A DNA stretch of 64,000 bases from Parcubacteria group bacterium (GCA_943354045.1 CALRBF010000003.1:4703-68702); one strand, 5' to 3'; positions 2,266 to 39,193 are shown, counted from the stretch's first letter. Notes: generated by a model from the letters alone, not told the origin. Translations and numbers: made by a program.

Positions 2266-3648
2266 TTAGCTTAATATAATTACTTGGTTTTCCTCGGGGA
2301 CTTTGGCTGTAATATGAAGTGTATCTTTTATGGCATTAGCTAAAGATTCAGAAGCTTCCTGCTCCCCCTGTACTACAAATATATTTTTAGTTTGCTTAAT
2401 ATGAGATAACCAATCGAGTAGCATTTCTTTATCCGCATGAGCAGAATACCCATCTACCTTCCTCACCTCTATCTTATTCTCAACTGGATGATTATGTATA
2501 TATACTGGATTCTCACCTTCCAGAATACGCCTTCCTAATGTACGAGGAGCCTGATACCCGACAAATAAAATAATATTATTTGGATCAGACAAATATCGCT
2601 CTTCATGATATAGTACTCTTCCTCCTGTTGACATACCAGATCCGGCCATAATCATTTTGGGCTGAGGTTGACTATTAATTTTCATAGAATCTTCTCTATG
2701 TTCCGTCATAGTTAAAAAAGGAAATTCAAAAATCTCATCGGTTTTGGCAAGTTGCTTTGCTTCTTGATTATAATATTGGGTATATTTAGCATGAATTCTG
2801 GTCGCCTTGATAGCTAAAGGTGAATCTAAATACACATCAATACGCCCTACTCTTCCTTGAGGGAGCCCCTCTCCTGAATGATTTTCTACAATATCATTAA
2901 GTTCATACAAAATATCCTGTGTACGCTCAATAGAAAAGGTTGGCATAATCAATACTGACTTTCGGTCTATAGTATCTTTAATAGCTTGTTTTAAAATTTC
3001 TTTTCTCTCAGCTAATTTTTGATGAATTCTATCCCCATAACAAGACTCTACAATCACATAGTCTGCCTCTTCAATATAATCATATTTACGTAATAATACC
3101 GATGGGACATTCCCCAAATCTCCTGAGAATACTAATTTGATACGCTTCCCTGTCTCAGGGTCTAATACCCAAATTTCAGTAATAGCTGAACCTAAAATAT
3201 GTCCTGCATCTTGAAAACGGAAAGATATATTCTCATCAATTTCATAAATTTCATGATATTCCTTACCCCTCCATTGAGCGACAGCCTTATCTACATCTTC
3301 TTCGGCAAAAAGAGGTAATTGACTATGATCATGTTCCATAATAGATACCGTATCCCTTAGAGATATTTCTGCAAATTCTTGGGTTGGATAAGTAGAATAT
3401 ATTTCTCCACTAAACCCATCTTTAACCAGTTTAGGAATTCGTCCAATATGATCAATATGGGTATGTGTTGATATCATAAAAGATATACTTTTAGGATCAT
3501 AAACAAAGGGCTTATAATTTATTTCATCAGCCTCTGAACTTCCCTGTACTAATCCACAATCGACAACAAATCGTATTTTTCCATTATCAATAACATAATT
3601 AGCTCCCGTAACTGAACCGGCTCCACCACAAAATTGAATACTGACCAT
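2266..3648 (-). CDS. MBL-fold metallo-hydrolase with beta-CASP domain (RNase J/CPSF-like RNA-metabolising nuclease)
   Basis: 460 aa. HxHxDH motif (HTHIDHIG) plus downstream Asp/His motifs typical of beta-CASP RNases. Confidence 0.7.
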   Translation of the reverse strand: MVSIQFCGGAGSVTGANYVIDNGKIRFVVDCGLVQGSSEADEINYKPFVYDPKSISFMISTHTHIDHIGRIPKLVKDGFSGEIYSTYPTQEFAEISLRDTVSIMEHDHSQLPLFAEEDVDKAVAQWRGKEYHEIYEIDENISFRFQDAGHILGSAITEIWVLDPETGKRIKLVFSGDLGNVPSVLLRKYDYIEEADYVIVESCYGDRIHQKLAERKEILKQAIKDTIDRKSVLIMPTFSIERTQDILYELNDIVENHSGEGLPQGRVGRIDVYLDSPLAIKATRIHAKYTQYYNQEAKQLAKTDEIFEFPFLTMTEHREDSMKINSQPQPKMIMAGSGMSTGGRVLYHEERYLSDPNNIILFVGYQAPRTLGRRILEGENPVYIHNHPVENKIEVRKVDGYSAHADKEMLLDWLSHIKQTKNIFVVQGEQEASESLANAIKDTLHITAKVPEENQVIILS

Positions 3649-3701
3649 TATTTGTATATTAGTTTACTATGTATTTATAGTATCACAAAGAATATCTTTT
3701 C

Positions 3702-6700
3702 TCAATAGATAATAATTACTATCTTTTTGTCCTGATTTACAATAATTTTCTTAATGCGTGTTTTATCTGTGATAATGGTATTTACTTTATCTGATTCTAA
3801 AGCTTTTTGTTGAATAGCCTCATTGTCTAATTGTGCATTAACCGTAATAATATCTCGCATTTTTCCATTAATATGAATTTGATAATCTGCCTCTGTCTGA
3901 ATTAATTTTGATTCATCAAATTGTGGCCAAATAGATTTATGCACTGATTCTGTCTTACCTAATATTTCCCATAATTCTTCCGCAATATGTGGAGCAAATG
4001 GAGCTAAAAGAGTAATATATGTGGTGATATATTCTTTACCAATATCTTTATTAATATAGGTATTGAGATATTCCATCAAACTACTAATACAGGTATTATA
4101 TTTTTGGTTTTCAATATCTTCAGTAATTTTACGTATTAATATATGTGTATCATAATCTAATTTGATTGTATCTACGGCTTTCTCCAATGTTTGAGTTTGC
4201 ATATCAGTAATCCATTGATATACTCGCTTCAAAAATCGACTACATCCAATAAGACCGCTTGTATCCCAAGCAATTGCCTCATCATAAGGTCCCATAAACA
4301 TTTCATAAATTCTCAAAGAATCGGCTCCGAATGATTCTACCATTTCAACTGGATCCACGGTATTACCCTTAGATTTGGACATCTTAATACCCCCTTCAGC
4401 CAAAATCATTCCATGTGCAATACGCTTTTGATAAGGTTCTATTGTCGGTACCAATCCGATATCATATAAGAATTTATGCCAAAAGCGTGAATACAAAAGA
4501 TGCAAAGTTACATGCTCCATACCTCCATTATATAAGTCCACTGGTAGCCATTGCTCTAAAGCAGCTTGGTTTGCTAATTCTTGAGTATTATGAGCATCAG
4601 CATATCTAAGATAATACCAAGAACTTCCTGCCCAATTAGGCATAGTATCTGTTTCTCTGATACCCTCCACCCATTTATCATCGGGCTTAGTCTCGCTACG
4701 AGGAAGTGTTTTACCTGTTTCAATATGATACCAAACTTGAACCCAATCTTTTGCAAGTGCTAATGGCCCCTCACCTTGTCCCTCTGGAATATATGATTCT
4801 ACTTCTGGTAATTCGAGCGGTAATTCTGTTGGAGCCAAGGGAACCGCATATTCCGTATTATTATTTTTTTGTCGAGTAATGGGATTTGCTGGTAGAAACT
4901 TAACAATTTCACCTGATATTTGTCCATAAGACTGCTCATTAATCCACACAATAGGAAATGGCTCTCCCCAATAGCGCTGACGTGAGAATACCCAATCACG
5001 AAGCTTATATTGGATTTTCTGATGACCTAGATTCTTAAATTCTAATTCTTGTGTTAGCTTTTGTTTAGCTTCTAATGTTGATAATCCGTTATATAAATCT
5101 GAGTTCTCTAAAATATTATCCTCTGTAATAACATTGATAATTGCTAAATTATATTTCTCAGCAAATTCTCTATCTCTCTCATCATGAGCGGGTACCGCCA
5201 TCACAGCTCCCGTTCCATAATTCATTAATACATAATCTGCAGTCCAAATAGGAATTTGTTCCCCTGTTAATGGATGTACAGCATAGGCTCCTGTGAATAC
5301 TCCCGTTTTTTCTTTTTCTTGCTGACGATCTAAATCACTTTTTGATTTTGTTTGCTTTTGATAAGTTTGTATTGCTTCTTTATATTCTGATGTGACAATA
5401 GTATCTAAAATTGGATGTTCTGGAGCTAATACCAAAAAGATAACACCAAATAAGGTGTCTATTCTGGTGGTAAAGACTTTTATATTTTTTTTCGGAAATA
5501 TATTCTTTATATCTTCAAATCTTTTTAAAACCTGTTGCTCAGGCAATAAATCAAGGAGAGGCTGTAATCCCATATGTCCCCACCCACAACCAATTAATTT
5601 GTTTTTATCACATAAATTTTCTAATTCATAAATATCGGCTTGTGAATCAGTAAAATAATAAATGTCTTTTTCAGAAACACCCCAATCATTACAGATTATT
5701 TCAATTTTTTCTTCTTTTGAATAATGATCTTCATATGTTAAAACATGTGTAGGATTTACTCCTAATTTTTTAATTTCTTCTATCATTGGAGTAATATATG
5801 CATGCGAACCTGAGGATACAATTGCTATTTTTGTATTTTGTAATTTTACTATTTCATCTATAAATCCATTAAAAATTTTAGGTTCTAATTTTGCAAGAAT
5901 TTCTCCAAACTTTAATGTCCATGCATCAATTCTTTTAATTTCAGAATCTTCAGCACCACGAGCATGTGATGGTTTTTTTGATAAATAATTAAAGTTCTTT
6001 TTAAGAGCTTCAGTTTCATCTATCTGACTTATTTCCATTATTGCTTGTATTGTTTCTTTTTCCGTATCTCCAAGAACTCCATCAAAGTCAAAAATAATAT
6101 ATTTTTCTGTTTGATGTTCTAATTTAAAATCAATCTCACTGCCCTCACTGCGGCCAATCCAATTTCGCTGTTGAGTTTTGATAACAGGCAAATAATCGAC
6201 AATATCTAAATCTTTATCCAATCTATCTGCATATTTGGTAATAGCCAACATCCATTGTGTTAATGACACCCTCTCACAGGGATGCCCCCCGCGCTCTGAC
6301 TTTCCATCAATAACTTCTTCATTAGCAAGAACCGTCTTTAATTCATCACACCACCAAACCTTAGTAGTATCTTGATAAGCAAGTCCAGCTTTATACATTT
6401 GTAGCCATATCCATTGAGTCCAGCGATAATATTGTGGATCAGTAGTATTAATTTCACGACTCCAATCAAAAGATAGTCCTAATAATGCTAATTGTTTTTT
6501 GAAAGTATTAATATTATTTTCTGTTGCAATAATAGGAGATATATTATTTTGAATAGCATAATTTTCTGTTGGTAGACCAAAAGCATCCCAACCTATTGGG
6601 TATAATACATTTTGCCCCTGCATACGATACATTCTTGCCTTTATATCCTGAGCCACATAACTACGAATATGCCCCACATGTAGTCCAGCTCCTGATGGAA

Positions 6701-6821: not shown

Positions 6822-6876
6822 AATAACAATAATTTATTGGTATTATTCTAGCATATATGTCTTATTTTGTCATTGA

Positions 6877-26078: not shown

Positions 26079-27494
26079 ATGATAAAACTATATAATACCC
26101 CAGCCAAGGCAATAGTCCCTTTCAAATCCATACACCCAAAAAGAGTATCCTTATATAGTTGTGGACCAACCGTATATGATAGACAGCATATTGGGAATTT
26201 ACGCAAAGGTTTATTTGATGATTTACTCAAAAGAACTCTGCAATTACATAGCTATAATGTCTATTCTGTTACTAATATTACTGATGTAGGGCATCTGGTT
26301 AGTGATGAGGATACCGGAGAAGATAAATTAGAAAAAGGAGCCAAAAGAGAAAATCTCACAGCATTAGAAATCGCCGAGAAATACACCAAACTTTGGCAAG
26401 AAGATTTAGAAAAACTCAATATTATACCCTCTGACCATTATCCGAAAGCCACTGAATATATCAAAGAACAAATTAATCTTATCAAGAGATTAGAGCGCAA
26501 AGGATATACCTATATTACCAGTGATGGAGTATATTTTGATACGAGCAAATTCCCTGAATATGCTGACTTTGCGCATCTCAATCTCAAAGCTCAAGAAGCA
26601 GGAGCTCGAGTAGATATGGGAGATAAAAAATCCCCCTCAGATTTTGCCCTCTGGAAATTCTCCCCTAAAGGAGAGACAAGACAAATGGAATGGGATAGCC
26701 CTTGGGGAATTGGCTTCCCGGGATGGCATTCTGAATGTGTAGTAATGGCAGACTCACTACTCCATGCACCTTTTGATATACATACCGGAGGTAAAGATCA
26801 TATCCCAATTCATCACACCAATGAAATAGCTCAGTTCAAAGCAGATACCGGTAAGCCTATGGCGCATTATTGGCTACATAGTTATTTTCTCACCGTCAAT
26901 ACAGCTAAAATGTCCAAATCAGCGGGAACTTTTATTACTCTTGATGATATTATTGCTCAAGGTTATTCCCCACTAGACTTGAGATTATTGGTTTTAATGG
27001 CACATTATCGCTCAGACATAGACTTCTCTTGGGAGTCTCTGACTCAAGCCAAACAAACCCGCCAGCGAATTATAGACTTTATCAATAGAGTGAATACTAT
27101 CAAGCCACATCGCAAAAACCTAAAACTCCAAAAACTAATCCGAGATACTTATAATAATTTCAAAAAATCTCTTTTCTCTGATCTAGACTCCCCCAAGGCC
27201 ATTGCCCATATATTTGATTTTATAAAAGAAGTCAATAGCTCAATAGATGCTGGAGACCCCATACCAAGACGCCATATAATCAAATTATTCCAGAGACTAG
27301 AGCGAGTACTGTCTCTAGATTTACCCCTCACTAAACCAGACATCCCCGCTGAGATAATGCTCATTTTCAATAATCGCAATCAAGCGAGAGCCAATAAAGA
27401 CTTCGCCCAAGCTGACAAATTAAGACAAGAATTGTCCAACTTAGGCTACACTATCCAAGACAAAGATGGACAAAGTGTAATTATTAAGACATAA
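26079..27494 (+). CDS. cysS: Cysteinyl-tRNA synthetase
   Basis: 471 aa. HIGH-type motif (HIGNLR), KMSKS motif (KMSKSAGT), zinc-binding Cys residues, CysRS-like anticodon-binding C-terminus. Confidence 0.9.
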   Translation: MIKLYNTPAKAIVPFKSIHPKRVSLYSCGPTVYDRQHIGNLRKGLFDDLLKRTLQLHSYNVYSVTNITDVGHLVSDEDTGEDKLEKGAKRENLTALEIAEKYTKLWQEDLEKLNIIPSDHYPKATEYIKEQINLIKRLERKGYTYITSDGVYFDTSKFPEYADFAHLNLKAQEAGARVDMGDKKSPSDFALWKFSPKGETRQMEWDSPWGIGFPGWHSECVVMADSLLHAPFDIHTGGKDHIPIHHTNEIAQFKADTGKPMAHYWLHSYFLTVNTAKMSKSAGTFITLDDIIAQGYSPLDLRLLVLMAHYRSDIDFSWESLTQAKQTRQRIIDFINRVNTIKPHRKNLKLQKLIRDTYNNFKKSLFSDLDSPKAIAHIFDFIKEVNSSIDAGDPIPRRHIIKLFQRLERVLSLDLPLTKPDIPAEIMLIFNNRNQARANKDFAQADKLRQELSNLGYTIQDKDGQSVIIKT

Positions 27495-27512
27495 TATTAT
27501 TGTCTATATATA

Positions 27513-27541
27513 TTGACATTTTGGCAATTTTGTGATATGAT
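27513..27541 (+). promoter_or_regulatory. Consensus sigma70 promoter: TTGACA - 17 nt - TGn-TATGAT
   Basis: -35 TTGACA at 27513..27518, 17-nt spacer, extended -10 tgaTATGAT at 27533..27541. Confidence 0.6.
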
Positions 27542-27566
27542 TTATTTTGTTCATTCACAAGGTTTT

Positions 27567-28007
27567 ATGCCCTCCCCATTCCGAATCCGTGAACGCCTTC
27601 GTTTACTCCTCCCCCCAACTCTGGATGATATTCAGAAAATGGTAGAAGAAGAGATGGAGCCAGAGCTTCAGCCACTCGAAATTCCCGAGGCCGAAGCACC
27701 CCCCATTCCAGGGAATCTCAATACCCAGCAATTTCCCCAAAAGAAGTTTGTAGCTGGAGTAGAAGCTCTACTCCCTGAGATCTTGGAGGAATCCAAGAAG
27801 TATGGGGGGGTGGTTCAGATTTTCGTGGCACTCACCCTGCTAGAAACAGTCGAGGAGACTGAAGCAAAATTCTTTTTCCTGGAGGAGCAGGCCCAGGGAA
27901 TTGAGCCTATTATTTTATTATGGGCTCAAGCTTACCAAAACAAAAATTACATGTTGCCACCTCTAACGGCAACAGTGCACTGGGGTTTTACCCCCATCAT
28001 CTGGTGA
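27567..28007 (+). other. GC/C-rich ~0.5 kb transcription unit of unknown nature: either an acidic Pro/Glu-rich protein (~147 aa from ATG 27567) or a structured non-coding RNA
   Basis: Composition clearly departs from the flanking AT-rich DNA. The track ORF starts at a TTG coinciding with the -35 box, so its N-terminus is spurious. The predicted protein is low-complexity (EEEMEPELQPLEIPEAEAPPIPG). Multiple short GC hairpins are present. A strong terminator follows. Confidence 0.3.
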
Positions 28008-28027
28008 TCAAGCCTCCACTCATACCC

Positions 28028-28060
28028 AAGCCCCGCAATACGCGGGGCTTTTTTTCTTTT
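28028..28060 (+). terminator. Rho-independent terminator
   Basis: Perfect 9-bp GC-rich stem (aagccccgc / gcggggctt), 5-nt loop, then tttttt. Confidence 0.8.
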
Positions 28061-28112
28061 GACAAATAGTATAGTCTCTGTTAATATATTTTGTGATGTC
28101 CTGCTATTTACA

Positions 28113-28409
28113 ATGACAACAAAATTGACTTTCGCTCTTGAAGACTGGGATACCATACTGAATCATTTGGAAAAATATGCAATACCCAAACTCCCTATCA
28201 CTCAATTAAGTGGTATTGAGAAAAGAAAAGCTCGGCAGAATATATTCAGTCTAGGGCGTCCTCATACAAGAGATCTCATAAGACCAACTATTAATGAGAT
28301 TCAAAGAGAATGTGATAAGAACAGAAAAAACTTTCAACCCGAAGCTACGGTATTCGTACATGATAATATTGTAAAACTTATCAATCGAATACCAGCCACA
28401 TCCTCATGA
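28113..28409 (+). CDS. Hypothetical protein (~98 aa from the internal ATG; track ORF starts at 28059)
   Basis: Open frame with lysine/arginine-rich C-terminal half, no recognisable family. Located between the terminator and tRNA-Thr. Confidence 0.3.
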   Translation: MTTKLTFALEDWDTILNHLEKYAIPKLPITQLSGIEKRKARQNIFSLGRPHTRDLIRPTINEIQRECDKNRKNFQPEATVFVHDNIVKLINRIPATSS

Positions 28410-28500
28410 GGAAATATTTTAATCATATTAATTCGGCATCACCATGATGTCGAATTTTTCTTCTTGCTCTTGCAGCCATTTTAGACTATACTATGCTTAT

Positions 28501-28575
28501 GCCAATGTAGCTTAGTTCTGGTAGAGCAATGCATTCGTAACGCATAGGTCGTGGGTTCGATCCCCACCATTGGCT
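28501..28575 (+). tRNA. tRNA-Thr (anticodon CGT); CCA is encoded immediately 3' (28576..28578)
   Basis: Manual fold. Acceptor stem GCCAATG/CATTGGC, 7 bp. D-arm GCTT/AGAGC with GG in the loop. Anticodon arm with loop TTCGTAA (anticodon CGT, one A-C mismatch at the stem end). 5-nt variable loop. T-arm GTGGG-TTCGATC-CCCAC. Discriminator T. Confidence 0.75.
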
Positions 28576-28597
28576 CCATTATTTATATGAAAAAATT

Positions 28598-30040: not shown

Positions 30041-30148
30041 GGATTTTATGTATGAAAAGACAATATAATAGATTGTCCAAAAAGTTATACAATGGTGGTT
30101 TTTGGTATTTTGTTACTGTGTGCGTAGATGATATGAAGTGTATATTTG

Positions 30149-30170
30149 TAGAGTCGGCGACCCCGCCGAC
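30149..30170. repeat. GC-rich palindrome tagagTCGGCGaccccGCCGAc inside the RAYT-like CDS (copy 1)
   Basis: 7-bp perfect stem GTCGGCG/CGCCGAC with a 4-nt loop. GC-rich in an AT-rich gene. The reading frame is maintained through it. Confidence 0.8.
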
Positions 30171-30429
30171 ATATATAGAAGATGTTTATAAATTTAAATT
30201 AAATAATATTGGCAATATTGTAGAAAGTACTTGGCTTGATATACCAAAGTATTATTCTAATATTACATTAGATAGATATGTATTGATGCCAAATCATTTT
30301 CATGGAATAATTGGTATAGACAAAAATTCATATTCTTTAGGTACTAGTAAAAAAGTTTCTTTGGGAGACATAATCTCTAGCTTTAAACAAATATCATTGA
30401 GGAATGTAAAAAAATACAATAATCCTAAT

Positions 30430-30451
30430 GTCGGCGAGGCCGCCGACTCTA
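30430..30451. repeat. Inverted copy of the same palindrome, GTCGGCGaggcCGCCGACtcta, inside the RAYT-like CDS (copy 2)
   Basis: Reverse complement of copy 1 including the tagag/ctcta flanks, differing only in the loop. Lies 260 bp downstream of copy 1. Confidence 0.8.
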
Positions 30452-30613
30452 CGAAAAATATAATGAATAAATATAATACTTTTTGGCAAAAATCTTTCTA
30501 TGATCATATCATTCGTAATAATACTGATTTACTAAGAATTCAAGAATATATTATGAATAATCCTATAAACTGGGAATGAGACGCTCTCAATCCCAATAAT
30601 CCCATACAAATAA

Positions 30614-30936: not shown

Positions 30937-32973
30937 ATGGGAGTTAAAGCGGCTAAATTAATTCAAATCACTGTTCCAAATAATACTCAATTAGAATTAT
31001 TAGCCTATATTCAAAAGCATCAGGTTGGAGAAATTATAGAAAGAGTAGAAAGAACTCCTCTAACTAAAAAATATTTGCATAAACAGGAGGATTTATTAGA
31101 GAATTTAGATATTATCAATAAAGCTTTTGATGTTTATAAAACATATAATCAGCAGAAAAAATCTATTTTAACTAGTCTTATAGATAATCGATTTAGTATT
31201 ACTGAACCTATATTTGAGCATTATGATAAGAATCAAGATCTTATCATTGCCAAAGCCAAAGAAATTGTTGAAAAGGCTGAATTAAAAGATGATTTAACTA
31301 CTCGCCAAGAAATTCTACAAGATATTATTGCTAAATCAGAACCTCTCAAAGATATTGAGCTTAACATTTTTAAGCCCTATTCTTATATTGCTTTTATCCC
31401 CTTCTTGATTGATGAGTCTCGAGCACATTATCTGACAGATCAATTAGAGCATAGTCTCTCTCCTGTAGTTTTAGAATCTGTCAAAAAAGTTGGTACTGAT
31501 TATGTATATATTCTAGCCGTCCCCAAAAATCAGGCTAAAATTGCCCTGGATATAATTCAGAATCAAGCTACCCTGATTCAATTCTCAGCAGAAGTGAAAG
31601 GATCTTTTTATGATGTTTATCATAATAGTAAACAAGAGCTCAATGCCAATACTAAGAAAATTAATACATTAAATCGAGAGTTAAAAAAATCTCCCGTTAA
31701 AATGAAAGACTTAGCTATTTTAGTTGATGTATTAAACTCTCAATTAAATTTAATCTCTTATTTACACTCTTTTAATCCTGAGTCGGAGACTACTTCCTCA
31801 ATACAATTATGGGTAGATGCGGAAAAATTCAACTCAACCAAACAACCTATTTTAGGTATTTCAGAGGATATTACAATTGTAGAATTACCTTCTGATGCTG
31901 AGAATACTCCGATTATATTAAAAAATTTACCGATTATTAGACATTTTGAGACTGTGACCAAAATTATGGGCTATCCGCAAGCTGGTAAAATTGACCCGAC
32001 TTTGTCTATTGCTATATTCTTTACCTTTATGTTTGGATTAGCTTTATCTGAGGCTGGATATGCTTTAATCTTGATTGTTTTGACTGGGCTTGGTTTATTA
32101 AATCCTAGATTAAAATCAGGAATTCGAGATATCTTTGCGGTAGTATTTATTGCTTCTATCTCCACTTTGATTATAGGAGCTCTCTTTGGTAGTTGGTTTG
32201 GAATTACTCCAGATGCAGTTGACTATGCTACTGCCTCTCCTCATATGAAATTCTTGATTAGTATTGGACTGATCCCTTTCTTACAACAATTACAAATTAT
32301 CAACCCTATGGACAGTGTAATTGCCTTGATGGGATTCACTATTGTATTAGGTATTATTCATCTTTTATTTGGTTTGGTTCTCAATATTGTACAGGCTTTC
32401 AATCAAAAATCATTCTGGGATGCTAGCCTAGATTCTATTCTTTGGGCTTTGGCTTTAATCTTTGGAATATTCTTATTAGTGATTAACTTTGGATTATTAG
32501 GAGATGGTTTCAAACTTCTTATTGATCCTCTACTTTACTCCTATATTGCTTATGTTTTTGTGATGACATATCTACTAGGGCGAGAAATGAAGTCTATTTT
32601 TACTAAATTTGGTAAAGGAGCTTATGATGTTTTCTTTGGAGTTGTAGGATATTTGTCAGATATACTATCATACACTAGATTAGTAGCTCTGGGTCTTGCA
32701 ACCGGTATTATTGCTGGTGTAGTAGGAACCTTAGCTAATTTAGCTGGTGGTGGTTTGGTAGAAAAAGGGGGTGCCTGGCTCATTATTGGTTATATTATTA
32801 TGACTGTCATCTTTATTGCTGGAAATATATTTAATATTGCTTTGAATGTACTTGGTACTTATATTAATGTAGGTAGATTACATTTTGTAGAATTCTTTAG
32901 TAAATTCTTCCAATCCGGGGGGAAACCTTTACAAGTTGTCACAAGATCTCAAGAGTACAGTATTATTGAATAA
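30937..32973 (+). CDS. atpI: V/A-type ATPase subunit I (a-subunit, membrane stator)
   Basis: 678 aa. Soluble N-terminal half and polytopic C-terminal half with the conserved Arg-containing helix (SYTRLVALGLATG). Confidence 0.8.
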   Translation: MGVKAAKLIQITVPNNTQLELLAYIQKHQVGEIIERVERTPLTKKYLHKQEDLLENLDIINKAFDVYKTYNQQKKSILTSLIDNRFSITEPIFEHYDKNQDLIIAKAKEIVEKAELKDDLTTRQEILQDIIAKSEPLKDIELNIFKPYSYIAFIPFLIDESRAHYLTDQLEHSLSPVVLESVKKVGTDYVYILAVPKNQAKIALDIIQNQATLIQFSAEVKGSFYDVYHNSKQELNANTKKINTLNRELKKSPVKMKDLAILVDVLNSQLNLISYLHSFNPESETTSSIQLWVDAEKFNSTKQPILGISEDITIVELPSDAENTPIILKNLPIIRHFETVTKIMGYPQAGKIDPTLSIAIFFTFMFGLALSEAGYALILIVLTGLGLLNPRLKSGIRDIFAVVFIASISTLIIGALFGSWFGITPDAVDYATASPHMKFLISIGLIPFLQQLQIINPMDSVIALMGFTIVLGIIHLLFGLVLNIVQAFNQKSFWDASLDSILWALALIFGIFLLVINFGLLGDGFKLLIDPLLYSYIAYVFVMTYLLGREMKSIFTKFGKGAYDVFFGVVGYLSDILSYTRLVALGLATGIIAGVVGTLANLAGGGLVEKGGAWLIIGYIIMTVIFIAGNIFNIALNVLGTYINVGRLHFVEFFSKFFQSGGKPLQVVTRSQEYSIIE

Positions 32974-33078
32974 GACTATTATCTCTTTCATTGTATTTTT
33001 GATTAAGTTCAAGAGTATAGTGACAGAGATGGCAGTAATATCAATCTCTGTCACTTATTAAGAGTTAAAGTTAAATAT

Positions 33079-33558
33079 ATGGAAATATTAGGTGTGAGTT
33101 TAGCGGTACTTGGAGCTGCTTTAGCCGCTGGTTTAGCTGGGGCGGGTTCATCAATTGGAGTAGCTACTGCTGGAAAAACGGGAGCGGGGCTTGTTGCTGA
33201 AGATGACTCTCAATTTGGAAATATACTTTTATTATCAGCCCTACCAGGATCACAGGCTATTTATGGTCTTTTGGCAGCTGTTTTGATTTTGCAAAATACT
33301 GGAGTCTTATCTGGTGAATTTGCAAATTTAAGCTGGCAAAATGGTATGATTCTAGCATTTGCTGGGATTCCAGTGGGACTTACTTGTTTAGCTTCAGGAA
33401 AATATCAAGGGGATGTAATTGCTAGTGGAGTGCAGTTGATTGCTAGAGATAAATCCAAAATTGGACAAGTAATTATCTTAGCTGCTTTAGTAGAGACTTT
33501 TGCTGTATTCGGATTACTGGTTTCTATCTTAATTATTAATGGAGTATCAGTAGGATAA
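33079..33558 (+). CDS. atpK: V/A-type ATPase proteolipid subunit K (c-ring)
   Basis: 159 aa. Duplicated hairpin proteolipid rich in Gly/Ala, with a conserved acidic residue in the distal helix. Confidence 0.8.
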   Translation: MEILGVSLAVLGAALAAGLAGAGSSIGVATAGKTGAGLVAEDDSQFGNILLLSALPGSQAIYGLLAAVLILQNTGVLSGEFANLSWQNGMILAFAGIPVGLTCLASGKYQGDVIASGVQLIARDKSKIGQVIILAALVETFAVFGLLVSILIINGVSVG

Positions 33559-33560
33559 AT

Positions 33561-34097
33561 ATGACTTTAGCAGATTTAATACAATCTCAGAGCAATAAGG
33601 ATATTGAGAAATTAGAAGCTCAATATAAAGCTGAATTCAAAGAGACCAAAAATACTTGGGACTCCGCCTTAGCTGAGGTCAAAAAATTACATACTGAAAA
33701 AATTGAAGAGGCTGTCCAAACTCAAATTAATTTTCAAAAATTCCAAAATAGCAAAACTACTAAATTTACTTTTGGTTATGCCATACAATCTCAACTAACC
33801 CAAATTTATATTGAATCTTTATCAGAAATCCTAGCTTCTAACTTTGTAAAAACCTTAATTCAAGATACTCTTAAGGATATCCCTCAAACTGCAACTTTAA
33901 CTATAACTGGGCAATATGCCAAAGATTTACAAACTATTATCAGTAGTCTTGGATATATATCTAATTCAACTAAAGATAATTCTAATTTAGGTAAAATTAG
34001 CGCTTCATTGGATCATATTCGTCTCGAAATTACTGTTGAGGACATTCTTAATACTGTCAAGCAAGCAACATTAGCCTCCGTAATCAATGAACTATGA
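33561..34097 (+). CDS. V/A-type ATPase subunit E (peripheral stalk)
   Basis: 178 aa helical protein, assigned from its position in the conserved operon order. Confidence 0.55.
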   Translation: MTLADLIQSQSNKDIEKLEAQYKAEFKETKNTWDSALAEVKKLHTEKIEEAVQTQINFQKFQNSKTTKFTFGYAIQSQLTQIYIESLSEILASNFVKTLIQDTLKDIPQTATLTITGQYAKDLQTIISSLGYISNSTKDNSNLGKISASLDHIRLEITVEDILNTVKQATLASVINEL

Positions 34098-35035
34098 GTT
34101 TACAAATTCCTCTAATTGGTGTTGCTAGTAAATATGTCTCTCGATTAGGGCATTTACCCTCCTCTACCGAGGCCAAAAACCTACTCAATACAGATAATAT
34201 TGACGCTATTTTGATTATGATTAGAGATTCTTTTGGAATAGCAGATATTAGTCTAGATAATGTAATTGAGAAATTAAATAATTATTCTCCCACCCAAATT
34301 GAGGAAATTTTGTCCCTTTTACCAGATAATTCCGCTCCTTTTGTCTATTTAACTCTTGCTCAAGACTTTGAAAAATTAAAAACTCTAGCCCTAAGTAAAA
34401 CTATTTATGGCGAGGCTTTGGGAGATAAAGCTTTTGAGCAAATTTTAGCCGAGACTACCACTCATTTACATTATGCTTCTCAATTTAAGTCTAAATTATT
34501 GGCTAAAGAGGAAAAATTAATTCACTCTCATGATAGCTTTAGTCTAATTTCTTATTTAGAGGAAATATTTTTGACTTTACTTTTTGAAAATCTAAGTAAA
34601 AGCAGTGATATTATGCGAGACTTTGTCTTAGCAAAAATAGATAGCTATACCCTACTCAATGTCCTCACCAGAACCCAAAAAGGGCAGTCCAAAGAGCATA
34701 TTCTAAGGCATCTCTTACCAATTCAAGGTAGTCTCGCTATCAATGCAGTAAAGAGCTTTAGCTTTGGAGATATTCTAGGAGATATTGGGCAATATCTAAA
34801 TCTAGCTCCTGTAGATATCAATATCATCAATATTGAAAATACTTTAATTCAAAATGAAATCAAAACTCTACATAGAGCTCAATTTACTGGGATGTCTGGT
34901 GATAGAATTATTCAATATACCGAGAGATTACAATATTCGATTTCAAACTTTAAATTACTTATTTTGCAAAATTCCAAACAAATAGACTCCAAACAAGCTA
35001 AATTAAGATTTATAGATTATTCCAATATATGTTAG
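34094..35035 (+). CDS. V/A-type ATPase subunit C (d-subunit, central socket)
   Basis: 313 aa, all-helical. Assigned from operon position between E and F. Confidence 0.55.
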   Translation: MSLQIPLIGVASKYVSRLGHLPSSTEAKNLLNTDNIDAILIMIRDSFGIADISLDNVIEKLNNYSPTQIEEILSLLPDNSAPFVYLTLAQDFEKLKTLALSKTIYGEALGDKAFEQILAETTTHLHYASQFKSKLLAKEEKLIHSHDSFSLISYLEEIFLTLLFENLSKSSDIMRDFVLAKIDSYTLLNVLTRTQKGQSKEHILRHLLPIQGSLAINAVKSFSFGDILGDIGQYLNLAPVDINIINIENTLIQNEIKTLHRAQFTGMSGDRIIQYTERLQYSISNFKLLILQNSKQIDSKQAKLRFIDYSNIC

Positions 35036-35352
35036 ACTATAAAAAACCCGTTGTAATTGCTGAATCAGATATTATTCTTTTATTTCAATTATTTGGATTT
35101 GAGACTTTCAATAGTGAGAATATTTCATTAGATATTATCATTCAATCTATTGAGAAAGATATAGAGCAATATGCTATTCTCTTTATATCTTCCTCCATTA
35201 TACTTAATCCAAAACAACGAAAAATTATGAACTCATTTAATATCCCTATTTCAGAGCTCCCTATCAGCAGCGATAGCTCTTCTGTAGATGAGCTAAAACG
35301 GCTCACTGAGAAAGCTGTGGGAATGAGCCTCGACACATTATTCGCGTCTTGA
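35029..35352 (+). CDS. V/A-type ATPase subunit F
   Basis: 107 aa. Small alpha/beta protein sitting immediately upstream of the catalytic A subunit. Confidence 0.55.
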
Positions 35353-37181
35353 TTAATCTAACTATTATGAATACTGGAACAATTATCAAAATCTCTGGCC
35401 CCCTTGTTATCGCTGACTCTATGAAAGGCAGTAAAATGTATGATTTGGTTAAAGTAGGAAAGCTGGAATTGATGGGAGAAATTATTGAGCTCAAGGATGA
35501 TACCGCCTCTATTCAAGTATATGAAGATACTTCTGGGCTTCGTGTTGGAGAACCGGTATATTCAACTGGTGAACCTCTTAGTATTGAGTTAGGACCTGGA
35601 CTTTTGACTGCTGGATTATTTGATGGAATTTTGCGCCCGCTTAATGTTATTGCTGAAAAAACTGCTGCTAATGGGTTAAATCCAGGATATATTGAAAAAG
35701 GTGTTACTGCTCCCAGCCTCAACCGAGAGACAAAATGGGAATTTAAACCTCTGCTCAAAAAAGGAGACAAGGTAATTGCCGGAGATATACTAGGAACAGT
35801 ACAAGAAACTGAGTTGATAACTCATAAAATTCTAGTACCTTTTGGAGTAGAGGGAGAAATTACCGAGATTAAAACTGGAGCATTTACCGTCACTGAGACA
35901 GTAGCCACTATTGGAGATAATCCCGTACAATTAATGCATAAATGGCCAGTACGTACTCCCCGACCTTATCAAGCCAAACAAATTCCTACTACTCCTCTTA
36001 TTACTCAGCAAAGAATTATTGATACCTTTTTCCCTGTACCAAAAGGAGGAGCTGCTGCGGTACCAGGACCTTTTGGAGCAGGAAAAACCGTTATTCAACA
36101 ACAATTAGCAAAATGGTCTGATGCTGATATTGTGGTTTATGTTGGTTGTGGAGAGCGTGGAAACGAAATTACCGATGTATTAGTAGAATTCCCTCATTTA
36201 AAAGACCCGAATTCTGGCCGACCTCTGATGGAAAGAACTATTTTGGTAGCCAATACTTCCAATATGCCAATTGCTGCTCGTGAAGCTTCTGTCTATACCG
36301 GTATTACCCTAGCTGAATATTATCGAGATATGGGATACAATGTAGCTATGATGGCTGACTCTACTTCTCGATGGGCCGAAGCTATGCGTGAAATGTCAGG
36401 AAGATTAGAAGAAATGCCAGGAGAAGAGGGGTATCCTGCCTATCTTGGATCTCGAATTTCAGCCTTTTATGAAAGAGCAGGTATTGTGACAACCCTTGGA
36501 TCTGAGGGAAGAACTGGATCAGCTACTATTATTGCAGCTGTATCGCCTCCAGGAGGAGATTTATCTGAGCCTGTTAGTCAAGCTACCCTTAAAGTAACCA
36601 AAGCTTTTTGGGGATTAGACGCTTCTTTGGCTGCAAAAAAACATTTTCCATCTATTCATTGGCTTAATAGTTACAGTCTTTATAAGGACAATGTGGAAGA
36701 ATATTTTATCAATGCAACCGATGCTGATTGGAAAGAATTGCGTGATCTTGCTATGCAAATTTTACAAAAAGAAAATGAACTTGATGATATTATAAAATTA
36801 GTGGGAATGGACGCCCTATCTAGCGCTGAGAAAATTCTCCTAGACACTGCTCGTGGTCTCAGAGAAGATTATCTTCAACAAAATGCCTTCGATGAAGTTG
36901 ACGCTTTTGCCTCTACGCGAAAAATGTATCTGATGCTCAAAGCGATGTTAACCTTCCATCAAGAAGCTTTGGCATTCACTCAAGGTAATACTCAAATTGA
37001 AATTAATGATATATTAGAGCTCCCAATAAGAGAGTCTATTAGTCAACTCAAGAACATACCTGAATCTAATATAGAGTCAATTGTTACTTTAATTGATTCT
37101 ATTGCTCCTATCATCAAAAATCTCAAAGAGAATAATCAAGACTCAGACTTTGGTATTAATAAAGTAATCAACGGAATTTAG
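35349..37181 (+). CDS. atpA: V/A-type ATPase catalytic subunit A
   Basis: 610 aa. Walker [10 protein letters not shown], Walker B region, A-subunit-specific non-homologous insert. Confidence 0.9.
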
Positions 37182-37190
37182 GATAATTAT

Positions 37191-38576
37191 ATGAAGAAAT
37201 GGTATAACACAATCAAAGAAATTGCCGGACCACTCGTAGTAGTGGAAAAGGTACCCGAAGTTGCATTTGAGGAAATTGTAGAAATTCGAGATGCAAAAGG
37301 AAATATTCGCCGAGGAAGAGTACTTGAGGCTGGTAAAGATACCGCCATTGTTCAACTATTTACCAATACTGAAGGACTTGATACCAAAACAGCTGAAATT
37401 GCATTTCTTGGAGAAACACTCAGATTTGGTGTTGCAGAATCAATGCTTGGAAGAGTATTCACCGGAGCTGGTGAGGTCAAAGATGGTGGACCCGAGATTA
37501 TTGCTGAAAAATATGTAGACATCAATGGCGCCCCTATCAATCCTGGACAAAGACAATTCCCTAGTGAATTTATTCAAACAGGAATTTCTACCATTGATGG
37601 ATTAAATGCTCTTGTACGAGGTCAAAAACTCCCTATATTTTCTGGAGCTGGACTACCTCATGCTGAACTTGCTGCCCAAATTGCAGAACAATCTCGTGTG
37701 GTTGAAGTAAAAAATGGTACTGATTTGGTAGAGTCAGATGAACCATTTGCTGTTATTTTTGCAGCTATGGGAGTTACTTTTGAAGAAGCACAATTCTTTA
37801 TCGATTCATTTGAAAAGACAGGAGCTATGGAGCGAGCCGCTCTCTTTATCAATACCGCCAGCGACCCTATCGTAGAGCGTATTACCCTACCAAGACTAGC
37901 ACTTACTCTGGGAGAATATCTTGCCTTTGAGAAAAATATGCATGTATTAGTTATATTAACCGATATGACCAATTATGCTGATGCCCTCCGTGAAGTATCG
38001 GCCTCCAGAAAAGAAATTCCTGGAAGAAGAGGATATCCAGGGTATCTCTATACCGATTTAGCGACTCTTTATGAAAGAGCGGGACTTATCAAGGGATCTA
38101 CTGGTTCATTGACGCAAATTCCTATACTCACTATGCCTGATGATGATAAACAACATCCAATCCCCGATCTTACAGGATATATCACAGAAGGGCAAATTAT
38201 GGTAAATAGAGAGCTTCATAATCAAGGGATTTATCCTCCAATTCAACCAATTGGATCTCTTTCTCGTATTGCAGTAAATAAAAAATATACCCGTGAAGAT
38301 TTATCTGCCGTCAAAGAGCAAATGGCCTCCTCATATGCCAAAGGAATGGAAATCAAAGAATTAGCCCTCATACTTGGTGAATCAGCCCTATCCGAGACAG
38401 ATAAAGCCTATATCCGATTTGCTGAGGCTTTTGAGACAAGATATATTACTCAGGGTCGCCGAGAGAACCGTTCTATATTAGATACGCTTGATTTATCTTG
38501 GGAATTATTATCCATTCTTCCTAAAAAAGAATTAAAGAAAATCAAGCCTGAATTTATTGAGAAATATTCCAAATAA
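37191..38576 (+). CDS. atpB: V/A-type ATPase regulatory subunit B
   Basis: 461 aa. Conserved B-subunit core with a degenerate P-loop. Confidence 0.9.
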
Positions 38577-38578
38577 AT

Positions 38579-39193
38579 ATGCCAGCAGTAAAGCCTACCA
38601 GACAAGAGGCCCTAAGACTTAAGAAGAAAATTAAAACAGCTTCCAGAGGACATAATTTGCTTACCGATAAAAGAGATGGCCTAATTCAAGAATTCCTCGC
38701 TATTATCCAAGAAGTAATAAAACTTCGAGGAGAATTAACACCAAAAATGGTAGAAGCAATACAATTATTCCGATTTGCACAAACCAAAATTTCAGAAGAA
38801 GCTATTCAAGAATTAATTCATCTCTCACAAGCCAAAACATATTTAGAATTACAGAAAAAATCCATTATGGGAGTAAAAATACCCCATATTATACCCCATA
38901 TTACTGGAGACCCTTTCCAATATGGAACCTTTGGTACCCCCAAAGATTTAGATCAATCCTTATCATTATTACAATCCATATTACCCCTCATTATACAATT
39001 AGCGGAAATAGAATTCACCGCCAGACTACTCGCCGAGGAAATTGAAATAACCCGCCGAAGAGTGAATGCGCTAGAATATGTCATAATACCCGAGATGAAG
39101 CAAAACTTGAAGTCAATTCAAAGCTCACTCGACGAACTCACCCGCCAAGAAAAAGTCACTATTATGAAAGTCAAAGAAATTTTGGGATTGTAA
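38579..39193 (+). CDS. atpD: V/A-type ATPase subunit D (central rotor stalk)
   Basis: 204 aa coiled-coil. Its last 56 nt are repeated at 41281..41336. Confidence 0.8.
   Translation: MPAVKPTRQEALRLKKKIKTASRGHNLLTDKRDGLIQEFLAIIQEVIKLRGELTPKMVEAIQLFRFAQTKISEEAIQELIHLSQAKTYLELQKKSIMGVKIPHIIPHITGDPFQYGTFGTPKDLDQSLSLLQSILPLIIQLAEIEFTARLLAEEIEITRRRVNALEYVIIPEMKQNLKSIQSSLDELTRQEKVTIMKVKEILGL
39137..39192 (+). repeat. 56-bp direct repeat, copy 1 (3' end of atpD): boundary of a 2.1 kb inserted islet
   Basis: ctcacccgccaagaaaaagtcactattatgaaagtcaaagaaattttgggattgta, identical to 41281..41336. Confidence 0.9.

Follow-up and report, generated by a model that had tools for sequence, protein, structure and literature searches.

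A GC-rich 0.5-kb unit beside cysS in a Parcubacteria group bacterium is probably a small, clade-restricted protein gene with its own promoter and terminator, and neither an RNA gene nor a recent insertion

The window analyzed here is a 64,000-nt stretch of DNA from a Parcubacteria group bacterium (GCA_943354045.1, CALRBF010000003.1:4703-68702). Downstream of cysS, an ORF called at 26079-27494, we observe a compact unit that lies entirely on the + strand. It consists of a predicted sigma-70-type promoter with an extended -10 (27513-27541, from a motif scan and conservation in ten orthologues), a short putative 5′ UTR (27548-27566, a block 3′ of the -10 and 5′ of the ATG that is conserved in alignments), a CDS of 146 codons ending in TGA (27567-28007, stop codon at 28005-28007, identified by codon-level conservation), and an intrinsic terminator (28028-28057, from a terminator scan and the orthologues). 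We refer to the encoded protein as X. Its N-terminal tail (residues 1-44, 27567-27698, + strand) was delimited using pLDDT and the distribution of indels, and its folded domain (residues 45-146, 27699-28004, + strand) using an AlphaFold2 model. The + strand continues with a second small unit, ORF2 (28059-28456, from motif and terminator scans), which has a predicted promoter at 28059-28087, a CDS at 28113-28409 and a terminator at 28430-28456, and then with tRNA-Thr(CGU) at 28501-28578 (Rfam and ARAGORN), a conserved downstream landmark. An initial annotation had described the promoter, the GC-stem terminator and the position between cysS and a tRNA correctly, and had left it open whether the content was an acidic disordered protein, a horizontally acquired remnant, or a structured RNA.

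The promoter contains TTGACA (27513-27518) and TATGAT (27536-27541) separated by a 17-nt spacer whose 3′ end is TGa. It matches 11 of 12 consensus positions with the TG extension in place, and is one of three matches in the window with a single mismatch to TTGACA-N14-TGnTATAAT. Both hexamers and the TG are kept in all ten orthologues, with the -35 reading TTGGCA in L014. We infer sigma-70 promoter activity for this segment, and transcription would start at about 27548, judging from the position of the -10 only. When up to two mismatches are allowed, the same pattern is found nine times in the window versus 2.0 ± 1.5 expected, so the consensus is apparently used by the organism, suggesting that extended -10 promoters may be in wide use in this CPR genome. 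Matches to the pattern start at 6845, 11784, 18952, 28059, 30614, 42080, 50465, and 60521. The 5′ UTR carries a conserved TTGTTCATT(T)CACA motif, alignments of the ten sequences show a conserved block, TTGTTCATTTCACA, and a Shine-Dalgarno-like AAGG is present at 27559-27562, its counterpart in relatives being GGAG. At the other end of the unit, the terminator reads AAGCCCCGC-AATAC-GCGGGGCTT followed by T7, yielding a stem of 9 pairs, 7 of them G-C, and a 5-nt loop. The stem is kept in the ten orthologues with 97.8% of cells paired: seven of the nine pairs are invariant, one pair in the G-C core varies between C-G and U-G, and the basal A-U becomes an A-C mismatch in two orthologues. Since the terminator scan detected no terminator in the interval from cysS to the X promoter, read-through transcription from cysS may also stop at the X terminator.

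Using ten distinct orthologous DNA sequences, the window included, from related Paceibacterota (CPR) genomes, we were able to examine how the unit evolves. The start codon at 27567 is an invariant ATG in 10 of 10 orthologues; the TTG within the -35 box (27513), at which the ORF had previously been started, is an artefact of choosing the first possible start. In every pair of orthologues substitutions are most frequent at the third codon position, then at the first, then at the second, and between the window and L001 the differences at positions one, two and three are 0.295, 0.144 and 0.521. This order is seen in all five sub-regions of X, including the low-complexity N-terminus. The median dN/dS of X is 0.27 at a pS of 0.55, as compared with 0.076 at a pS of 0.52 for cysS (both Nei-Gojobori). 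A nucleotide alignment made without codon guidance has 45 gaps within the ORF, each of them a multiple of three in length. Frame +1 has no stops in any of the ten orthologues and the other five frames have 2-13; an overlapping or antisense gene as the source of synonymous constraint was rejected because of these stops in all other frames. One locus, L012, is an exception: codon 17 of X is a TAG there (TTC TTT TAG CCA, at ~2920-3000), and the gene is called from an internal ATG (3001-3387) to give the 128-aa protein P0024, which three contigs carry. It may be that X can do without its N-terminal tail, or that this allele is in decay. The initial annotation had reasoned that codon-periodic conservation across homologues would make the unit a protein gene, and by that reasoning the ten orthologues identify it as one.

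Protein X has 146 aa, a pI of 4.5 and a net charge of about -11, and includes the peptide FVAGVEALLPEILEESK. Its first 44 residues contain a conserved basic MPSPLRIRERLR motif followed by a variable acidic and Pro-rich linker. In an AlphaFold2 model built from a 25-sequence alignment, residues 1-40 have pLDDT below 50, and most of the in-frame indels among orthologues are located in this N-terminal tail. Residues 45-146 have a pLDDT of ~90 (mostly 87-96 per 10-residue block, with one block at 77; pTM 0.64) and are confidently modelled as a domain with the element order beta-alpha-beta-beta-alpha-beta, a putative ferredoxin-like topology, with strands at residues 52-57, 83-90, 101-104 and 134-143 and helices at 58-79 and 106-125. 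Of the three initial suggestions, that of an acidic, partly disordered protein is the one supported, above all by the codon-periodic conservation; disorder and low complexity are limited to the ~40 N-terminal residues, the remaining ~100 being the modelled alpha/beta domain. A Foldseek search of the PDB and BFVD with the X model gave no matches at E ≤ 1e-3, and the best-scoring structures, designed ferredoxin folds and the little-finger domains of polymerases, match it in generic topology only. With such small domains (the designed 7dkk_A and the little finger of Y-family polymerases) X shares the order of elements and the domain size, but at E values of at least 0.015, query-normalised TM scores of at most 0.42 and identities of 7-16% the likeness is one of topology only, and profile searches found no sequence-level kinship of X to any Pfam or PDB family. 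Sequence-profile searches of the PDB from alignments A1 and A3 gave one match at E 0.12, then none. Seven residues are invariant even in remote homologues: Q58, L69, F102, F104, I116, W119 and W139. Since these are mostly core-type hydrophobic or aromatic residues, except Q58, and none looks catalytic, we infer a non-enzymatic binding or adaptor role, and X would most likely be an abundantly expressed protein of this kind in one genus- or family-level Paceibacterota clade.

The family to which X belongs is small and narrowly distributed. In a collection of 5.8 billion sequences we found 30 homologous predicted proteins with 54-80% identity to X, in which the substitutions are conservative, in addition to P0001, an identical truncated copy of X. 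Pattern scans of genomes and of metagenomes found one and two loci, respectively. The close homologues all fall within a narrow clade of Candidatus Paceibacterota (CPR), to which L008 is assigned by name. A family HMM matched only nine of 1.84 billion protein representatives. Four of these nine are remote homologues with profile E values of 1e-4 to 1e-7. In three of them (P0032, P0033 and P0035) the alignment is limited to the folded domain, and the fourth, P0034, seems spurious: this protein of 1518 aa matches profile positions 77-115 ten times in short repeats. P0031 is a more divergent relative, apart from the ~30 close members. Rebuilding the profile with the remote members added no new proteins, and a search seeded with the remote member P0033 found three proteins only. 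The genomic contexts of the remote homologues are uninformative, with a neighbor of the beta-lactamase family or many domain-free genes. Pfam, NCBIfam, PHROGs and PADLOC gave nothing significant for X, its homologues, or ORF2. One homologue, P0005 (144 aa), carries the JGI label 'NifB/MoaA-like Fe-S oxidoreductase'; since this protein has no precomputed Pfam domain and its close homologues have no family match in any library searched, the label looks like an annotation error. Altogether, the ~30 close members, P0031, and the four remote matches constitute a protein family that had not been annotated before, and its alpha/beta domain is predicted with confidence. Most lineage-specific CPR proteins are uncharacterised, and a literature search for expression data on hypothetical proteins of Paceibacteria found no papers. 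X resembles the lineage-specific hypothetical proteins of CPR/Patescibacteria in being short, domain-free, limited to a narrow clade and labelled 'hypothetical protein' at source; unlike them, it has its own terminator and consensus promoter, is modelled with a confident fold, uses codons foreign to its genome, and shows signs of allele exchange.

We therefore favor, with a probability of roughly 0.85, the reading that this 0.5-kb unit is an independently transcribed gene, bounded by a promoter and a terminator of its own, whose small acidic product combines a disordered tail with a predicted ferredoxin-like domain and is confined to one Paceibacterota clade, and that it is neither an RNA gene nor a recent insertion. 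Transcription would be driven by the near-consensus extended -10 sigma-70 promoter from a start ~19 nt 5′ of the ATG at 27567 and would end at the strong intrinsic terminator, 20 nt 3′ of the stop codon. Translation through the AAGG/GGAG Shine-Dalgarno-like motif would yield the 146-aa, strongly acidic and presumably cytoplasmic protein X, in which a disordered tail, made up of the basic motif and a Glu/Pro linker, would precede the domain of ~100 residues. What had been suspected to be an orphan RNA or an island would then be an ordinary clade-restricted small protein gene, and a false non-coding RNA call is avoided.

The most unusual property of the unit is its composition, which had been called foreign to this AT-rich genome with good reason. 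The GC content is 0.49-0.50 over 27600-28050 versus 0.30-0.39 in the flanks, and the 300-nt value of 0.50 in the X region is the maximum of the 64-kb window (mean 0.34, sd 0.048). Runs of C and G are present as described (for example GCCCTCCCC, CTCCTCCCCCC, CACCCCCC, and ATGGGGGGG). The GC contents at codon positions one, two and three are 0.62/0.34/0.50 in X versus 0.48/0.35/0.32 in cysS. GC3 is 0.44-0.53 in all X orthologues versus 0.17-0.38 in all other genes of the window; it is 0.26-0.34 in cysS across related loci, and 0.19-0.25 in the putative V-type ATPase genes of the window, which were considered in asking if high expression alone could raise GC3. Codon choice in X departs from that of the genome for Lys (AAG 0.65 versus 0.21), Gln (CAG 0.58 versus 0.21), Leu (TTA 0.08 versus 0.41) and His (CAC 0.80 versus 0.05). 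Under the protein-gene reading the GC-richness would come from two sources. One would be the amino acid composition of X, whose Glu, Leu, Pro, Ala and Gln content accounts for the GC1 of 0.62. The other would be a preference for G/C-ending synonymous codons that is kept in all orthologues and gives the mRNA, as well as the DNA, an unusual degree of self-complementarity. Since GC3 is kept at a pS of 0.55, which is near saturation, the composition looks maintained and not like a decaying relic. Such G/C-rich synonymous sites, and the folding excess described below, would not be expected of a plain protein gene in a genome of 34% GC, which points to some extra nucleotide-level constraint or process. 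A polarised-singleton test for equilibrium GC3 gave 3 versus 7, on few sites. Together with the self-complementarity and the promoter-to-terminator allele exchange described below, this anomaly offers a compact, testable case in which to study how local GC is maintained in reduced, AT-rich genomes; selection on the structure of the mRNA, biased conversion of genes, and an origin in foreign DNA are the candidate causes.

One possible cause is that the transcript has two functions: X is translated, and the RNA or the DNA is also selected for G/C-rich secondary structure, for instance to make a long-lived, RNase-resistant mRNA, to control translation, or to serve in a separate RNA role. We regard this as unlikely, though it would account both for the foreign codon usage and for the persistence of a high GC3 at nearly saturated synonymous sites. 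It is also consistent with the folding data, which bear out the many GC hairpins noticed at the outset. When codons were permuted synonymously within each sequence, preserving the protein and the codon counts, all ten orthologues were found to fold more stably than their permutations (MFE z -1.9 to -4.8), as compared with a mean z of 0.02 (sd 0.89) for sixteen control gene segments of the window. The whole transcript has an MFE z of -3.84 versus dinucleotide shuffles. We observed ten base pairs with changes on both sides versus 5.4 ± 1.5 in shuffles, with 92.6% of cells paired, an example being the replacement of TTGCC/GGCAA by TTACC/GGTAA in L009; however, the ten related sequences themselves had supplied the structure on which these pairs were counted, which inflates the score and makes it suggestive at most. 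Several further observations weaken the dual-function reading. RNAalifold gave no global conserved architecture for the ten orthologues, with 69 shared pairs over ~500 nt and a covariation term of -0.55 kcal/mol. The antisense strand has an equally strong folding excess (z -1.5 to -4.5), indicating Watson-Crick self-complementarity and nothing specific to the sense RNA. Because Glu (GAG) and Leu (CTC) codons, and likewise Pro (CCC) and Gly (GGG) codons, are complementary to each other, part of the self-complementarity follows from the composition of the protein together with the choice of GC-ending codons. Lastly, the synonymous sites of X are no more conserved than those of cysS (pS 0.55 versus 0.52). 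Overall there is a low but appreciable chance that the transcript or the DNA has an additional nucleic-acid-level function. The stronger form of this proposal, in which the ~50% GC at synonymous sites is held by selection on nucleic-acid structure, is more doubtful; the transcript would then serve as an mRNA and at the same time as a functional or unusually stabilised structured RNA, or else the DNA would form a structured cassette for recombination that lineages retain and pass to one another as a module from promoter to terminator.

Exchange of this kind is suggested by the relationships among the loci. L001 and L002 have 100% identical X DNA from 60 nt 5′ of the ATG to the terminator, but their cysS DNA is 90% identical and their downstream sequences are unrelated. 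Between the window and L011 the relation is reversed, with 97% amino acid identity in CysS and 64% in X. The X phylogeny is incongruent with that of cysS, and cysS itself is a mosaic of 100% identical stretches interspersed with stretches of 68-75% identity (L001 versus L002; L010 versus L001). Thus, the alleles of X appear to be exchanged between lineages by homologous recombination, with the gene itself vertically anchored 3′ of cysS. Since recombining bacterial genes tend to have a higher GC3 (Lassalle et al. 2015, PMC4450053), GC-biased gene conversion is a plausible contributor to the high GC3 of X. That the synonymous GC-richness is altogether a functionless by-product of such frequent recombination is improbable but deserves consideration: the incongruent trees, the X cassettes that are identical despite a 10% nucleotide difference in cysS, the mosaic of identical and ~70% identical tracts, and a cysS GC3 of 0.32 that is itself relatively high for the window all fit this explanation, as does the trend across recombining bacterial genes. 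However, gene conversion raises GC and alone predicts no folding excess over synonymous permutations, and GC3 steps abruptly from 0.32 in cysS to 0.50 in X, though both recombine.

A foreign origin, in which X was acquired horizontally from a donor of ~50% GC, inserted beside tRNA-Thr, and retained the composition of the donor, appears distinctly less probable. The composition and codon usage of X are indeed foreign to the genome, its distribution is very narrow, and its remote homologue P0033 lies on a contig of ~50% GC with a gene GC1/2/3 of 0.59/0.33/0.56, close to X, which leaves some probability for an ancient foreign origin. As in tRNA-adjacent genomic islands, the composition is atypical and a tRNA lies ~0.5 kb downstream. 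Unlike such islands, X has no adjoining integrase or mobility gene, the nearest being an IS200-like ORF beyond cca at 30052, and it lies in conserved synteny anchored to cysS and not to the tRNA. The order VanW-cysS-X is found in all loci examined, and X is 3′ of cysS in every related genome examined. ORF2, tRNA-Thr(CGU) and cca follow X in L002, L008, L012, L013 and L014; in L009 tRNA-Thr comes after X, ORF2 and cca not being identified there, and L001, L005 and L015 are rearranged directly 3′ of the X terminator. The anchoring to cysS and the recurring order cysS-X-ORF2-tRNA-Thr-cca argue against a recent island, a reading that is effectively refuted. Since the arrangement is common to lineages that have diverged almost to saturation at the synonymous sites of cysS, any acquisition would be old, and over such a time the GC3 of X would be expected to drift to the genomic 0.2-0.3 unless maintained. 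The promoter is of a host-type consensus and conserved in all orthologues. Nor is X the acquired remnant that had been proposed, since its gene has remained intact and purifying selection acts on it.

The earlier proposal of a structured RNA fared worst. In a covariance-model scan of the kind the initial annotation had proposed, RNase P, tmRNA, SRP and 6S RNAs were all without a match: the tRNA alone passes the Rfam 15 gathering thresholds in the whole window, all matches in 27400-28200 at E up to 10 score <22 bits against thresholds of 33-233 and mostly overlap the terminator, and ARAGORN found no tmRNA. A non-coding RNA with a fortuitous ORF, whether a novel large RNA or a diverged form of RNase P, tmRNA, SRP or 6S RNA, is effectively refuted: in AT-rich genomes a GC-rich island with a strong promoter and terminator is often an RNA gene, X shares the GC island, strong promoter, intrinsic terminator and tRNA-adjacent position of the RNase P, tmRNA, SRP and 6S RNA genes, and its folding energy is low, but Rfam offers only terminator look-alikes and, unlike those genes, X evolves as a codon-structured ORF: its substitutions have a 3-nt periodicity, it is under purifying selection, its gaps keep the frame, one frame alone is open, and its protein is modelled with a confident fold.

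The gene for X is thus best read as a small protein gene in a neighborhood with several features of its own. ORF2 encodes a protein of 98 aa with a pI of 9.7, and its predicted promoter is of the extended -10 type. It had been called an orphan; however, L002, L013, L012, L008, L014 and L005 each have a fast-evolving homologue in the corresponding place 3′ of X, so it is not one. The acidic X and the basic ORF2 product could form a functional pair, to judge from their charges and adjacency. Directly 3′ of the X terminator, several relatives contain arrays of short GC-rich hairpins (for example CGTAGCGGAGGGTTTACCCCTCC and GAGTCGGCGACCCGCCGAC, with spacers TTTTCGTAGGG), located in L008 at 3490-3720, in L005 at 6517-6533, in L007 likewise at 6517-6533, in L006 at 2966-2982, in L012 at 3449-3465, and in L001 after 6480. 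These arrays look like REP- or MITE-like insertions, and the same search found none in the window. A 175-aa ORF (30052-30579) directly follows the gene of the CCA-adding enzyme in the window, and a homologue of it follows cca in L014 (5712-6284). It has a weak match to the IS200-like Y1 transposases (PF01797, E 1.4e-3, below the cut-off) and could be a REP-associated tyrosine transposase tied to the hairpin arrays of the relatives. Further downstream, a run of same-strand ORFs occupies 30937-39193 of the window. Their counterparts in L002 match Pfam V_ATPase_I (faintly) and ATP-synt_C, and by these matches the run is apparently a V/A-type ATPase operon.
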